From Candidatus Hermodarchaeota archaeon (GTDB lineage Archaea > Asgardarchaeota > Heimdallarchaeia > Hodarchaeales > Hodarchaeaceae): a stretch of DNA of 32,000 nucleotides. The notes beneath the pieces are model-generated. The model had not been told where the DNA came from. It worked only from the letters and a program-made list of their open reading frames with translations, and did no database searches. Within the stretch, counting starts at the first letter, position 1. Every line of letters starts with the position of its first letter. The position numbers and the translations under genes are program-made. Location of the stretch: NCBI GenBank assembly GCA_048886185.1, contig JBHLKY010000018.1:67992-99991 (forward strand), in the 5' to 3' direction. Positions 9,461 to 29,199 of the stretch are shown here, one piece after another.

Positions 9461-10353
9461 ACACGAAAATAGGCGTTGTAACTGACAGTATGTGTGATTT
9501 ACCATCAAGCACTTCTGAAAAATATGGAATTATAGTTGTCCCAGGTATTGTATATGTTAATGGAAATCCCTTCCATAGTGGTGTGGATATTCATCCTGAA
9601 GATATCCAAACCATAATAGAAGACAAAGAGAAAAAAATTCAAACAGGAGCACCATCTCCTGCTGCTTATTATATGGCCTACGAGAATCTATATGATAAGG
9701 TAGATATTATATTAAGTTTACATTGCCCTATCAAACATTCAGGAGTGTTGAACGCAGCCAAAGCAGGTGCAAGACGTTTAGAAGACTCATCTCGGGTTGT
9801 TCACTTTGAGTGTGGAGTCGCGACTATTGGTTTAGGAATTACAGCTGTAGCAACAGCAATCAAATCACAACAAATCGAAACTAAACAGGAATTAATACGT
9901 CTAGTTCAAGAGTATTGTACAAAGATCCAGATAATAGGAACCCTAGAGTCCTTTAAATATCTTCAAAGAAGTGGTAGATTAGGCCTAAAAGTTGCGGGTT
10001 GGATTGCTAGTACTTTATCTATAAAACCTGTTCTTTTGATGAGAAATTCTGATATATTTCTGTTAAAAAAACCCCGAGATAGAAAGGTGGCTCTTAATCA
10101 GCTTATTTATAATCTATCTAAGAAGATCGATAAAGAAATTAATCCAAAAATTATTGGAATTAGTCACTTCGGATGTGAGGGAGAATTAAATGAAATAGAA
10201 AAGAAAATAAAAGGAATACTGCCAAATCATATGATTATTAGAGGTTATGCAGATCCAATGGTTGCTGCTAATACTGGACCAGGATTAGTATTAATAGCCT
10301 ACTTCGCTAATTTTATGGATAATTTAGATAATGGAATAAAAATAAATGCTTGA
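9457..10353 (+). CDS. fakB: DegV-family fatty-acid-binding protein (FakB-like)
   Basis: IGVVTDSMCDLP, QTGAPSP, HSGVLNAA, LQRSGRLG, LSIKPVL and NTGPG. ATGA overlap with the fakA stop. Confidence 0.9.
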   Translation: MNTKIGVVTDSMCDLPSSTSEKYGIIVVPGIVYVNGNPFHSGVDIHPEDIQTIIEDKEKKIQTGAPSPAAYYMAYENLYDKVDIILSLHCPIKHSGVLNAAKAGARRLEDSSRVVHFECGVATIGLGITAVATAIKSQQIETKQELIRLVQEYCTKIQIIGTLESFKYLQRSGRLGLKVAGWIASTLSIKPVLLMRNSDIFLLKKPRDRKVALNQLIYNLSKKIDKEINPKIIGISHFGCEGELNEIEKKIKGILPNHMIIRGYADPMVAANTGPGLVLIAYFANFMDNLDNGIKINA

Positions 10354-11011
10354 AATCATATTTTCAGGAATATTTGGCTACTTAACAGGATCAATTTTCA
10401 TTTCTTATTATTGGGGAAAAATAAATGGTATTGATTTAACAAAAGAGGGGACAGGGCAATTAGGCGCATCGAATACAGGTCGAAACTTGGGATGGCCTGC
10501 TATGGTAGTAGTTGGGTTATTTGATATATTAAAAGCCACAATTACTCTTACAATCTTGCATTTCTTTTTCAATCATATGGTTCCTTCTCCCCATTATGAA
10601 GTTTTATTAATAACTGGCAGTTTAGGGATTGTTTTAGGCCATATAAAATCCTTATGGATTTGGTTAGAAAAACATGATTGGTATGGAGGAAAAGGAGGTG
10701 CACCCTTTGGAGGAATTCTTTTGTTTCTATCATTGGAAAGCTTCATTATTTTATATGTTGTATTAATGGTTTTTCTGCAACTACTAAAGCTGTTTATATT
10801 GAAAGGAGGATCATATGATAACTTCTCAACAAATGTTATTGTTGTTTTATTGTCTCCTTTTGTCATTCTTTGGTTTACAGGAAAAATTTTATACTTCATT
10901 TTAGTACTCCTAATAATTGGTACAATCATTTTCTTTGAAAGGGAGAAAATCGCTAGTGTACTCACGATTACATTATTAAAGGGATCTAGAGAAGCAATAG
11001 ACGAATCATAA
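10346..11011 (+). CDS. plsY: Acyl-phosphate:glycerol-phosphate acyltransferase PlsY-like membrane protein
   Basis: GYLTGSI, GTGQLGASNTGRNLG (motif 1), FDILKA, LGH and GGKGGA (motif 2), in a multi-TM protein. Overlaps the fakB stop by 8 nt. Motif 3 is divergent. Confidence 0.85.
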   Translation: MLEIIFSGIFGYLTGSIFISYYWGKINGIDLTKEGTGQLGASNTGRNLGWPAMVVVGLFDILKATITLTILHFFFNHMVPSPHYEVLLITGSLGIVLGHIKSLWIWLEKHDWYGGKGGAPFGGILLFLSLESFIILYVVLMVFLQLLKLFILKGGSYDNFSTNVIVVLLSPFVILWFTGKILYFILVLLIIGTIIFFEREKIASVLTITLLKGSREAIDES

Positions 11012-11062: not shown

Positions 11063-11866
11063 ATGAGTATTGAGCGAGCAATTTATGAAATAAAAACAAA
11101 GCACGGAACAGCCCGTCTAATAAATAAAACTGTGGATCGAAGGGGTCTTCCAGTTCTTTTTGTTCATGGATTTGGTAGTTCACCTGAAATTTGGTTTAAA
11201 TATCCTGATAGCCTTGGAAAATTCTTTTTACAAAAAAAAGAGATTGATGTATGGAGTTTAGGATTGTCAAACGCTATTAGTGGTGATATTGAGGTTCTCG
11301 CACAGGAAGATCTCTACACTTCATTGAGCTTTATATTCGAGAGGAGTGAAACACTGATTCATATCATTGCTCATAGTGTCGGGGGAATCATAGTGAGATT
11401 TCTTTTATGTCCCCATTTTCAGCATTCTGATTTAAAACCTGAAGAACTTGTTCAAGGAGTTTCCCTTCTATCTGTACCAAATCATGGAACTAATAAATTT
11501 AAGAGTGATAGAATTTGGAACACAATGAGTCTTATTACTAATTATATTAGGTTTAATCAATTATTTGTTCAAGTACTTCGATCAAGTGAACTTATTAATG
11601 CATTGAATAACCAGAAACCATGCTTGAATCCCAAAGTAAAGTGGCAAAATGCGGTCAGTTCTTTCGATAACTTAATTGAACCGGAAAGTATGAGATTTAT
11701 GGAAGAAGAATTGTTAGATATAGATCTTATACAAAAAGAGTTTCCCTGTGATCATATTGTTTACCCTTTAAAATGGCTTTTTAATGACAATTATCCACCC
11801 ATCCATAGATACTCACCTGTTGCTGAGTGGATATATAAGAATGCCTTCACCAAAATCAGTCAATAG
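11063..11866 (+). CDS. Alpha/beta-hydrolase, lipase/esterase-like
   Basis: Oxyanion VHGF, nucleophile elbow AHSVG (11369-11383), PNHGT, and candidate catalytic Asp (FDNLI) and His (CDHIV). No evident signal peptide. Confidence 0.85.
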   Translation: MSIERAIYEIKTKHGTARLINKTVDRRGLPVLFVHGFGSSPEIWFKYPDSLGKFFLQKKEIDVWSLGLSNAISGDIEVLAQEDLYTSLSFIFERSETLIHIIAHSVGGIIVRFLLCPHFQHSDLKPEELVQGVSLLSVPNHGTNKFKSDRIWNTMSLITNYIRFNQLFVQVLRSSELINALNNQKPCLNPKVKWQNAVSSFDNLIEPESMRFMEEELLDIDLIQKEFPCDHIVYPLKWLFNDNYPPIHRYSPVAEWIYKNAFTKISQ

Positions 11867-12136
11867 CAAAACTTGTGTTTATAATATTGAGTTTTTAAGA
11901 TAGTGTCTTCGAATTGAACCTCCTTGACCTTGAATTAAAGAGAAAATTAAATGGCATGTAAATATTGTTTGCTACAAATTTATTATGACCGGGAAATCAA
12001 TAAGAAATCTTTCATTGATGTTGTAATGGATGAATTTTCAAACGAATTTTCCAGTTATGTGTACTTAATCATAGCAAAAGATAGTTGTTAATACATAATC
12101 GTCGTAAGCATCTCTAAATATGTTTTTCTTGTTGTA

Positions 12137-12676
12137 TCATTTATATATCTGTAGAAACTCATATTTTTCGGGATTATCTTCTTTAATTGCTTCAGCAGCA
12201 AGTTTAACATCAATTTGGATAATTGGTTCTAATTGTTTCCTCAATTCTTTCGGATCCTGTGATTTTCTTGTGAACAAAAATAGAGCTTTCCACAGGTGGC
12301 CTTCAACAAGATTGATTGCTTCTTTTGTATTTATCTTGAATACTGGATCAAAATTTTCTCTAAAAGTATTCTCATCATTAGTTTCACTCACAGAGAAAAT
12401 TAATAATTTCCAGATGTGTTCTCTGACTTTACCTGTGTCAATTTTGACTATTGGTTCTAGTTGTTTCCTCAATTCATCTGGATCCTGCAATTCTCTTGTT
12501 AAAGAGTATAATGTTGACCAAAAAGAGTCTTCAACTAGTTCAAATGCTTCATTTGAATTTATTTTAAATATTGGCTCATATTTTTCCCTAAAAGCCCCCT
12601 CATCACCGATTGTACTGGTTAAGGAACAAACTAACATCCAGAAATGCTTTTTGATCTTTTCTTGGTATTCTCCCAT
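12137..12676 (-). CDS. Helical repeat protein (2 x 76 aa, each with 2 sub-repeats)
   Basis: QDPDELRKQLEPIVKID and QDPKELRKQLEPIIQID, plus FREKYEPIFKIN and FRENFDPVFKIN. The DNA repeat has a 228-nt period (12223 vs 12451). Confidence 0.85.
   Translation of the reverse strand: MGEYQEKIKKHFWMLVCSLTSTIGDEGAFREKYEPIFKINSNEAFELVEDSFWSTLYSLTRELQDPDELRKQLEPIVKIDTGKVREHIWKLLIFSVSETNDENTFRENFDPVFKINTKEAINLVEGHLWKALFLFTRKSQDPKELRKQLEPIIQIDVKLAAEAIKEDNPEKYEFLQIYK
12223..12487. repeat. Intragenic direct repeat, 228-nt period
   Basis: ttggttctaattgtttcctcaattctttcggatcctg (12223) vs ttggttctagttgtttcctcaattcatctggatcctg (12451). Confidence 0.9.
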
Positions 12677-12990
12677 ATCATCACCGATTTGAGTCTATGG
12701 ATACTAAAGTTCTTTCTTCTTGTTTTATTAAAAAAGATAATTTAAACATATTATATTTTGTCCATCATGTTAAATCTTTTCTGTCAGTAAAAATATATTT
12801 TTCGATAATATGTCTTTAAAGTATTCTAAATTAGTGTAAGCTAGTAAAAATAGTGATAAATGCGTCACAGGTATATATCACAATTGGCTTTTTTTCCGTA
12901 TTTGTTTCAAGAGATACGAAAAAAAATCAAGAACTTTTATGGATACTGGTAATCCAACAAATGGTAATACTTCAGTTCAAATTTATCCTA

Positions 12991-27498: not shown

Positions 27499-29199
27499 TT
27501 ATTGAACCAATCTATCTCTCGCAGATACAACTTTCTTTAGTACAACAATATAGAAGACAATGGCTATGCATGTACAAATCAAAGCATTAGGTAGAACATC
27601 TATCAAAGCTTTTTCGCCTAAAAATACCCCCATATAGTCAAAATAGCTAAATGGAGTTAAGGCAAGTAGTAAGAAGTTATCAGCTATAAATCCAGCTAAA
27701 AGGAGAAGAATACTGATAGTAAATCCAAGTAATAACGTTTTTTGAGCATGTCTATAAGGAACCAGAAGTGCTAAAGCGAGAAAGACGATGAAAAACACGC
27801 AATATCCCCACATAAAGATCAAATAGCTTGCAGCTGCATTAACGAGATCACCATTATTTTCAAGCCCAAAATCCACGAGGATAAAGGTTAGAAAACTACC
27901 AAAGAATAAGGTCATAAGACCTATTAGTGCGGCCATAGTTCTATTGAATATTATTTTTGTTTCACTTTGTGGAAGTACCCATGTGATTTCTGCAATTCGC
28001 TCTTTTTTGTCCCTGAAAATAATATTATTTATAACAATCAGAATGAAAGGCCCAAAAGGTATCATCCAAGCCCAGGCAAAAAACTCAAGGGTAAACCAAC
28101 CTTCAAAAGTTGGTTTTAGTTCATAATTAAATAAAGCTGCGTCTATAAATGGGATATCAATGCTAGCAAAAGTGGCAGCTGTTTTTACCTCTCCTTCGTA
28201 TGTGCCTCCTTGCATAATTGTAAGACCGATTGTAACGATTAAAAAGACAGTCATAATTCCAACCATTGAATGTAATTGATCACGTAAGGCAGGAAATCTC
28301 CATCCGAGACTTCCAATTAGTTTGTCGAGAGGTAATTTTATTATTGAAAGTTTTTTAGTGATCTTTTGGCTTTCTATTTCCGGTTCATCAATTATTGATT
28401 TCTTATAACCTCCTTCTATGAAATCCTTTCGATGGATTAATAAAATAGACAGAATAATTAAGATAATTGATAAAAGGAGTGTTAAAAGAAGGAATTCTTC
28501 ATTCCAAGTTCCCATGATCGCATTTTGGGTATTTTGAGCTCTAGAAAATAGGTTTAAATCCAATAGGGCTTCAAAATCTTTATTATTTCTAAAAGCCATA
28601 TCTGAGAAAAAGCCAATTACAGTATAACCTCCCCCAATAAGATAACCTATTTTTTTGGAGAAGGATATTGAACATCCAAATGCTGTTAGAAAAGCAATAA
28701 AGATGGTAAGAAATCCTCCAATAACAAAGCTAATTGTCAAATTTACAACTGAATCAGCATTATTATTAATGAGAAGAAAAAATATCGATAATAAGTAACT
28801 TGGAGTACATATAAGCCAAATTAAGCCAGTTAATAGAATTGAATTCTCTAAAAATTCCCTTGTAAGTGATTTTGGTGTTGAAAATAAGAGTTCTTTTCCA
28901 TCCTTTTCAGCAATTGGTAAAATATTAACTCCAAGAAGGATTGCTGATAGAGGTAGATAAATACTAATTACCATCCCCGCTGCAATTATTGTCCATATAT
29001 GAAATCCAGGATTATCATATTCAAGTTCTCCAACAAATCTCTCATAATAGATTACAATATTTTGCATTGACTCTTCGCCAGGATAGATTAATGGGAAAAA
29101 CAGAGTTATAGCAGAAAAAAGTATGATAGAAAGCCCAAAAACAGTTTTATGTCTTAAAAAGCGAAGATAAAGGAGTTCAATGGATTTTGGAACGTACAT
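27499..29199 (-). CDS. ABC-2-type permease, two fused permease halves (about 12 TM)
   Basis: Duplicated EKDGKELLFSTPKS and DKKERIAEITWVLPQS loops. Directly downstream of the ABC ATPase. Confidence 0.85.
   Translation of the reverse strand: MYVPKSIELLYLRFLRHKTVFGLSIILFSAITLFFPLIYPGEESMQNIVIYYERFVGELEYDNPGFHIWTIIAAGMVISIYLPLSAILLGVNILPIAEKDGKELLFSTPKSLTREFLENSILLTGLIWLICTPSYLLSIFFLLINNNADSVVNLTISFVIGGFLTIFIAFLTAFGCSISFSKKIGYLIGGGYTVIGFFSDMAFRNNKDFEALLDLNLFSRAQNTQNAIMGTWNEEFLLLTLLLSIILIILSILLIHRKDFIEGGYKKSIIDEPEIESQKITKKLSIIKLPLDKLIGSLGWRFPALRDQLHSMVGIMTVFLIVTIGLTIMQGGTYEGEVKTAATFASIDIPFIDAALFNYELKPTFEGWFTLEFFAWAWMIPFGPFILIVINNIIFRDKKERIAEITWVLPQSETKIIFNRTMAALIGLMTLFFGSFLTFILVDFGLENNGDLVNAAASYLIFMWGYCVFFIVFLALALLVPYRHAQKTLLLGFTISILLLLAGFIADNFLLLALTPFSYFDYMGVFLGEKALIDVLPNALICTCIAIVFYIVVLKKVVSARDRLVQ

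Follow-up and report, generated by a model that had tools for sequence, protein, structure and literature searches.

The window analysed here, a stretch of 32,000 nucleotides with about 33% GC, lies on contig 18 of a 4.84 Mb, 96% complete genome of Candidatus Hermodarchaeota archaeon. It carries, all on the plus strand and within about 2.6 kb, a cassette of three genes overlapping one another: a short FakA-like kinase, a FakB fatty-acid-binding protein of the DegV family and a PlsY-like acyltransferase (the stop of FakA and the start of FakB overlap by 4 nt, the stop of FakB and the start of the PlsY-like gene by 8 nt). The third gene is our main subject. In its product the His and Asn of PlsY motif 3 are replaced by Glu and Lys, a form called E-type below, and from the sequence alone it had been proposed (hereafter the original prediction) that this protein keeps the phosphate-binding site of PlsY with a remodelled site for the acyl acceptor.

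Family and fold of the PlsY-like protein

The open reading frame (ORF) 10346-11011 matches the PlsY family PF02660 with 81.2 bits for a cut-off of 24.1, over profile positions 1-161 of 164. An AlphaFold2 model computed from an input alignment of 124 sequences reached a mean predicted local distance difference test (pLDDT) of 94.3 and a predicted template modelling score of 0.90. The five best Foldseek matches of this model are all entries of the Aquifex aeolicus PlsY (aaPlsY; 5xj5-5xj8), with template modelling (TM) scores of 0.68-0.73 on the query and 0.76-0.82 on the target, the next match having an E-value of 0.8; comparison of the model with 5xj5, 5xj7 and 5xj6 gave TM scores of 0.73/0.81. 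As modelled, the product of this ORF is a protein with the PlsY fold of seven transmembrane helices. Its nearest homologues come from metagenome-assembled genomes named Hod-, Heimdall-, Hermod- and ‘Thor’-archaeota (these taxon labels are the names of the assembled genomes), and they are publicly annotated as glycerol-3-phosphate acyltransferase.

Residues of the active site

Li et al. solved the structure of aaPlsY with both substrates and reassigned the motif roles, motifs 1 and 3 mainly binding glycerol-3-phosphate (G3P) and motif 2 binding acyl-phosphate (PMC5700162). The roles given below were transferred to our protein by sequence alignment to aaPlsY and from this published structure, not read from the coordinates of the model; the pairs come from a phmmer alignment to 5xj5, whose PDB chain index is the number of the paper plus 1. 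The residues so paired are (aaPlsY in brackets) T36 (Ser35), Q38 (Asn37), S42 (Thr41), N43 (Asn42) and R46 (Arg45), then H99 (His92), K116 (Lys104) and G118 (Val106), and finally E198 (His177), K201 (Asn180) and S204 (Arg183); Glu189 of the aaPlsY motif 3 is not kept. The ORF, its motif 1 GTGQLGASNTGR, its motif 2 GGKGGAP and the Glu codon at 10937 were all found as first described, the codon 10937-10939 being GAA and encoding Glu198.

By this alignment the acyl-phosphate site is present, with H99, S42, N43 and the GGKG loop (G114-G115-K116-G117), the motif 2 loop deviating by Thr108 to Pro besides Val106 to Gly. The acceptor side differs more. In aaPlsY the phosphate of G3P is clamped by Ser35, Arg45, Lys104 and Asn180, and its 2-OH is bound by His177 and Ser142 (PMC5700162). 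Arg46, Lys116 and, as a conservative change, Thr36 are in place in the clamp of our protein, so that the phosphate-binding site is kept for these members, but not for Asn180, which has become Lys201. Both ligands of the 2-OH are replaced, Ser142 by Asn163 and His177 by Glu198. Five positions of the G3P pocket are changed in this way, as is Val106 of the acyl-phosphate loop. The comparison of sequences supports a retained acyl-phosphate site facing a remodelled acceptor side, which agrees with the prediction that the latter had changed while Arg46 and GGKG were kept.

The replacement of His/Asn by Glu/Lys is real and rare within the PlsY family. An HxxN motif is found near the C-terminus of 114 among the 122 full-length nearest representatives, and the motif 3 columns of the canonical set contain 98% His and 98% Asn, Glu and Lys being at 0% (alignment A3). 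When the columns of the E-type clade are contrasted with the canonical ones, few positions stand out: Q38, W112, G118, N163, E198, K201 and two inserts, one of them about ten residues long (YDNFSTN) and placed ahead of the sixth helix. Since this contrast picks out N163 and E198, the two ligands of the 2-OH appear to have been replaced together. Position 38, invariantly Gln in the clade, is Asn in 96% of the canonical set (A3). The column of Asn163 contains Ser in 54% of the canonical sequences (MAFFT, A3), for 52.6% given by Li et al. at Ser142; the loop of Asn163 is the least confident part of both model and alignment (pLDDT 69 for residues 151-160).

The original prediction rested on the motif 3 His being the general base, and offered Glu198 as a possible substitute. 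The published enzyme contradicts the former: His177 stands 5.4 Å from the 1-OH of G3P, its pKa was calculated as 4.4, and its replacement by Ala leaves 6.5% of the activity; a substrate-assisted catalysis with no protein base was proposed instead (PMC5700162). As His177 is not the general base and catalysis is substrate-assisted, a Glu acting as the base is not needed. Nor does another His seem to compensate: the sole His invariant in the clade is H99, the equivalent of the acyl-phosphate ligand His92, and H110 and position 113 vary.

Conservation and selection

A word-indexed search returned about 22 close relatives with 50-99% identity, all labelled Asgard, and then bacterial PlsY at no more than 56 bits. 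When 1.84 billion representatives were searched exhaustively with a profile, only five had an E below 1e-30. In an alignment of 21 sequences of the clade (49-99% identity), E198, K201, Q38, T36, R46, H99, N159, N163 and G114/G115/G117 are invariant, as are N43, D60 and K63; K116 is present in at least 90% of them, and one member, P0034, is without the GGKG lysine (GGVG). Among pairs whose dS is below 1, the dN/dS (ratio of non-synonymous to synonymous rates) ranges over 0.15-0.36: the gene is under purifying selection. The His to Glu change is thus conserved in the archaeal orthologues, and a one-off decay or a pseudogene is ruled out by the invariance in the clade, the dN/dS and the conservation of the operon described below.

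Distribution of the cassette and of its fused relatives

FakA and FakB lie directly upstream of the PlsY-like gene in 10 of 10 loci of the family f1, the window counted, and the same trio is found on metagenomic contigs of relatives with identity down to 55%. Among 21 other genomes of f1, nine possess an E-type PlsY; DegV is present in exactly these nine, and the remaining 12 have neither. From this exact co-occurrence it follows that the cassette was gained or lost as a unit.

The next-best matches of the representative search are chains of 585-587 residues in which a PlsY-like domain is fused to the Dak2 and middle domains of FakA, FakA(N+M), and each of these fusion genes is followed by a DegV gene. 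Such a fusion is carried by both genomes of a second family belonging to the same order. A maximum-likelihood tree unites the E-type and fused forms with a support of 97 in the Shimodaira-Hasegawa-like approximate likelihood ratio test, and places the canonical PlsYs of other Heimdallarchaeia families in a separate clade with a support of 99. Like the E-type, the fused forms have Thr in motif 1, N163 and the insert ahead of GGKG; their residue at the position of His177 is Asp, and at that of Asn180 Ser or Thr. Because an acidic residue occupies the His position in both forms, which are grouped in the tree, we regard it as a derived trait common to the FakA-linked lineage.

PlsYs of three other Heimdallarchaeia families (f3, f4 and f6) retain GSGNVGGAN..R, GGKGGATT and HRxNIxRL, and no FakA or FakB was found within 1.5 kb of these canonical genes. 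A comparison of the loci of the E-type clade showed no conserved neighbour gene pointing to another substrate.

Other Asgard genomes display different arrangements. Family f20 (77 of 135 Asgard genomes) contains PlsY-domain proteins of about 402-411 residues, often two to four in tandem (loci L034, L038, L040 and L041; e.g. L040:862-2067:-), with GT(R/K/G)NPGTSN, a GGQG loop in which the equivalent of Lys104 is Gln, and no alignable motif 3; their C-terminal half, about 200 residues, has no Pfam match. DegV/FakB is also greatly expanded in other Heimdallarchaeia families, with 9-19 copies per genome in f4 (3 in one 76%-complete genome) and 6-24 in f7, for one or none in f1.

The short FakA and FakB

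The short FakA aligns to the FakA structures 7w7h and 7rm7 and retains DGDTG and KVHIHC, the H-x-H motif; NVFPVPDGDTG is invariant in alignment A4, and H-I-H aligns to VHVH of 7w7h. It ends after the middle domain, and no match to the C-terminal FakB-binding domain (PF13684) was found anywhere in the genome. In Staphylococcus aureus FakA_N and FakA_L suffice for kinase activity, FakA_C only adding the binding of FakB (PMC9136124); by analogy the short FakA would correspond to the minimal catalytic unit of the S. aureus protein. FakB passes the TIGR00762 cut-off of 99.7 with 183 bits, and aligns to PDB 1pzx, 4x9x (S. aureus FakB2) and 6dj6.

Genomic context of the predicted donor and acceptor

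In genome-wide profile searches the PlsY-like gene is the sole match to PF02660, no second, canonical PlsY being found elsewhere, and Dak2 and DegV are represented by one gene each, both in the cassette. PlsX was not found by profile search of the genome, which leaves FakAB as the only recognisable source of acyl-phosphate.

On the acceptor side, two genes resemble the glycerol-1-phosphate (G1P) dehydrogenase, with NF002022 as best match at 349 and 283 bits, under the equivalog cut-off of 413. A true GlpK is present (756 bits for a cut-off of 498), as is the CDP-archaeol synthase CarS, and a profile search of the genome found no GpsA. Both G1P and G3P could plausibly be available; with G1P-dehydrogenase-like genes and GlpK both present and GpsA absent, the gene content does not choose between them. 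The GlpK and CarS genes lie about 5 kb apart (G000:C1:130906-131661 and G000:C1:137057-137650).

Five PlsC-like acyltransferase genes were counted in the genome. One, of 342 residues, is about 2.5 kb from a sugar kinase of the FGGY family (G000:C27:24935-25327 on the plus strand, 27827-28567 on the minus strand), which is not GlpK by NCBIfam and has as best match an autoinducer-2 kinase, under the cut-off. PlsC-like genes are also present in the 12 f1 genomes that have no PlsY, where a lyso-lipid acceptor must have another source.

Features and neighbouring genes

Table 1. Features of the cassette and its surroundings (positions in the window)
Feature	Position	Strand	Basis and remarks
Short FakA-like kinase, 349 aa	8411..9460	+	Dak2 kinase domain and FakA middle domain; PF02734 104 bits, PF21645 36.5 bits
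FakB/DegV fatty-acid-binding protein, 298 aa	9457..10353	+	PF02645 155 bits, TIGR00762 183 bits
PlsY-like, putative acyl-phosphate acyltransferase, E-type, 221 aa	10346..11011	+	PF02660 81.2 bits
Motif 1 GTGQLGASNTGR (G35-R46)	10448..10483	+	Alignment to aaPlsY; Ser35 to Thr, Asn37 to Gln, Thr41 to Ser; Asn42 and Arg45 retained
His99, equivalent of aaPlsY His92, side-chain ligand of the acyl-phosphate phosphate	10640..10642	+	Invariant in alignments A1 and A2; role from PMC5700162
Motif 2 GGKGGAP (G114-P120)	10685..10705	+	Lys104 retained, Val106 to Gly; preceded by a 5-residue clade-specific insert (WLEKHDW)
Asn163, at the canonical Ser142 column (G3P 2-OH ligand)	10832..10834	+	Invariant in E-type and fused clades; MAFFT alignment A3
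E198-R-E-K201, replacing H-x-x-N of motif 3	10937..10948	+	Alignment
Alpha/beta-hydrolase, 267 aa, AHSVG nucleophile elbow, candidate lipase/esterase	11063..11866	+	Pfam matches weak

The alpha/beta-hydrolase gene follows the cassette in 6 of the 10 f1 loci, the window counted, and on the metagenomic contigs L002-L004, i.e. in close relatives only. Its matches to DUF7379, Abhydrolase_6, DUF676 and PGAP1 are all under the cut-offs, and it has no PDB sequence match; it might free fatty acids for uptake by FakB. Three ORFs antisense to the PlsY-like gene (10408-10572, 10569-10733 and 10594-10965, minus strand) are unsupported, and we treat them as chance frames of AT-rich DNA. Further downstream, positions 12120-12692 contain two long ORFs on opposite strands with a nearly complete overlap (plus strand, 190 residues; minus strand, 179 residues) and a weak, sub-threshold Pfam match; the minus-strand product has an internal duplication (…QDP.ELRKQLEPI..ID…, twice).

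Discussion

We propose that the E-type protein is a functional variant of PlsY proper to its clade, which would act as an acyl-phosphate acyltransferase fed by FakAB and working on glycerol phosphate (G1P and/or G3P) in a compensated pocket; to our judgement this explanation has about an even chance of being the right one. FakB would bind a free fatty acid, which the short FakA would phosphorylate into acyl-phosphate, and the PlsY-like membrane enzyme would move the acyl group onto a small phosphorylated alcohol, as the last step of a self-contained cassette for scavenging fatty acids. The acceptor would be held by the clamp of Thr36, Arg46 and Lys116, with Lys201 in place of Asn180, and the chemistry might follow the substrate-assisted mechanism of the family, requiring no protein base. 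The pair reading the C2 hydroxyl would have shifted from Ser/His to Asn163/Glu198, and the reaction would yield an ester-linked lyso-phosphatidic acid, which the PlsC-like acyltransferases of the genome could extend.

On sequence grounds, the retention of Arg46, Lys116 and Thr36 together with the new Lys201 argues for the continued binding of a small phosphorylated acceptor, and the coordinated change of the pair reading the C2 hydroxyl argues that the recognition of the rest of the acceptor shifted. The acceptor is most likely still a glycerol phosphate, G1P, the archaeal isomer, being at least as likely as G3P. G1P had already been suggested as an acceptor, and it remains plausible as such; as a reason for the remodelling it is weakened, canonical PlsY using it already. 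As the PlsYs of Bacillus subtilis and Escherichia coli make about equal use of G1P and G3P (PMC13400652), G1P alone demands no new pocket.

Several observations weigh against this proposal. The protein reaches only 67.9 bits with TIGR00023, the PlsY equivalog, for a cut-off of 137.2, and its scores with all the PlsY models of the NF0109xx series are far under their cut-offs. Five of the substitutions it carries exist as single mutants of aaPlsY, all less active and four of them (not V106G) with a raised Km for G3P: S35T has 17% of the activity and a Km multiplied by 3.6, N37Q 9.5% and by 10, T41S 45% and by 1.4, V106G 4.4% and by 0.7, and H177E 1.1% and by 30, with a kcat/Km reduced 2,700-fold (PMC5700162). 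Likewise, all four Asn180 replacements assayed, N180K not among them, show less than 5% activity (PMC5700162). Since each tested single substitution lowers the activity of aaPlsY, the binding of G3P should, by the canonical rules, be very poor here unless the substitutions compensate one another. The PlsC-like genes are of little help, for they occur in 22 of 22 f1 genomes (1-6 each), with or without the cassette, so that their co-occurrence does not imply a PlsY-to-PlsC pathway. Finally, a Glu of the short FakA clade (FEV/FEL) shares a column with the Cys of the fusions (FYCIQF, TFCLQF) in a MAFFT alignment of five sequences (A4; e.g. L002:4108-5112 and L005:4102-5115). This column, in a region that phmmer leaves unaligned to 7w7h, is probably that of Cys240, a residue needed for the activity of the S. 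aureus FakA; the H-x-H of this site is retained in all five sequences.

The damage seen in these mutants also feeds a competing explanation that we regard as possible, though clearly less probable: the donor would be the same acyl-phosphate from FakAB and the acceptor a new one, such as dihydroxyacetone phosphate (DHAP), the archaeal lyso-ether lipid geranylgeranylglyceryl phosphate, which would give a mixed ether/ester lipid, another phospho-alcohol or an amine-bearing head group. DHAP has a keto group at C2 instead of the hydroxyl, and an amine could pair with the new carboxylate. Both side chains contacting the 2-OH are indeed replaced (by Asn163, and by Glu198 or, in the fused clade, Asp), the change from Asn180 to Lys alters the charge of the clamp, and few aaPlsY mutants impair the use of G3P as severely as H177E and H177D do (PMC5700162). 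That an acidic residue is common to both FakA-linked clades points to selection; the canonical motifs are retained in other Heimdallarchaeia families, and the use of G1P by canonical PlsY leaves the remodelling unexplained by G1P alone. Nevertheless, the conserved Arg46, Lys116 and Thr36 and the additional Lys argue for a small acceptor bearing a phosphate, the pocket of PlsY is a compact one, in which a primary hydroxyl beside the phosphate clamp is acylated (PMC5700162), no neighbour gene conserved in the clade suggests another substrate, and a compensatory epistasis among the five substitutions is possible.

If the pocket were instead read as having merely drifted, the enzyme would be an ordinary G3P acyltransferase, obtained by an old bacterial transfer, in which neutral or compensated differences left substrate and product unchanged. 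This overlaps our preferred explanation, from which it differs only by denying a functional shift, and it accommodates the family match, the fold, the conserved acyl-phosphate site, the part of the clamp still in place, the true GlpK of the genome and the public annotation of the homologues. We find it unlikely: the substituted positions are 88-98% conserved over thousands of PlsY sequences, each tested change harms the use of G3P, and within the clade the new residues do not vary. Still more improbable in our eyes is a loss of the acyltransferase function, the protein serving FakA/FakB as a membrane anchor or receptor, or acting as a hydrolase or sink for acyl-phosphate that binds no acceptor. 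His177, Asn180, Arg183 and Glu189 of motif 3 have indeed all gone, the FakA fusion of the sister clade could point to tethering, and P0034 has in addition lost the GGKG lysine; on the other hand, the invariance of H99, N43, R46, D60, K63, the GGKG glycines, E198, K201 and N163 fits a conserved active site and not a scaffold, and the dN/dS is low.

How the eukaryotic lineage exchanged archaeal ether lipids built on G1P for fatty-acid ester lipids of the bacterial type, built on G3P, is a long-standing open question. The case for an archaeal host already capable of ester lipid synthesis rests, on the genomic side, mainly on the PlsY and PlsC homologues of Asgard archaea. In the group studied here PlsY is not a stray gene but part of a selected, self-sufficient cassette for the activation and transfer of fatty acids, in one case fused into a single protein. 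As the residues reading the glycerol stereocentre are replaced, the bacterial-type sn-1-acyl-G3P cannot simply be assumed as its product. It is tempting, though we hold it only as a tentative idea, to credit the PlsY clade of Hodarchaeales-type Asgard archaea that is linked to FakA and lacks the motif 3 His with a new acyl-phosphate-dependent specificity, either strictly for G1P or for an acceptor other than glycerol phosphate, such as DHAP or an archaeal lyso-ether lipid. Were this true, the archaeal lineage closest to eukaryotes would possess a dedicated route from scavenged fatty acids to an archaeal-type backbone, with ester or mixed ether/ester lipids as products.

Comparison with known systems

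In the literature searched (DegV with Asgard, Hodarchaeales with PlsY) we found no description of the FakA-FakB-PlsY cassette, of the PlsY-FakA fusion or of the motif 3 replacement. The E-type protein shares with bacterial PlsY (PF02660, TIGR00023; aaPlsY 5xj5-5xj9; PlsY of Streptococcus pneumoniae) the seven-helix fold and a similar size, as well as His92 (H99), Thr41 (as S42), the GGKG loop, Arg45, Lys104, Asn42, Asp59 and Lys62; a genetic link to a system producing acyl-phosphate is likewise common to both. It differs by the changes of His177 to Glu, Asn180 to Lys, Arg183 to Ser, Ser142 to Asn, Ser35 to Thr, Asn37 to Gln and Val106 to Gly, by the loss of Glu189, by two inserts and a sub-equivalog score, and by its archaeal host devoid of PlsX.

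FakA and FakB resemble those of Firmicutes (S. aureus, Streptococcus suis; 7rm7, 7w7h, 4x9x), whose known role is to supply acyl-phosphate to PlsY, by the Dak2 domain with DGDTG, the H-x-H of the middle domain and the DegV-fold partner. The Asgard FakA has 349 residues instead of about 550, the C-terminal domain that binds FakB being absent. Bacterial fakA, fakB and plsY are not known to form one operon.

The coupling of PlsY with Fak nevertheless has a precedent, since Li et al. noted bacterial PlsY-DegV fusions (UniProt A0A0P6X7I7 and A0A0P6XUK7; PMC5700162). There too a component of the Fak system is joined to the C-terminus of PlsY, implying a direct hand-over of acyl-phosphate; in the Asgard sister clade, by contrast, the partner is the kinase FakA(N+M) and not the binding protein.

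PlsY homologues of Asgard archaea are themselves known (PMC6431249; Manoharan 2019, PMC6737245; PMC13400652), and PlsY was reported in Loki-, Thor- and Heimdallarchaeota by Villanueva 2017, as cited in Coleman 2019 (PMC6431249). The canonical Asgard PlsYs have in common with the E-type their host, the PF02660 family and their relevance to the ‘lipid divide’. Those of f3, f4 and f6 differ from it in that they keep the motifs, have no FakA or FakB nearby and form a separate, supported clade.

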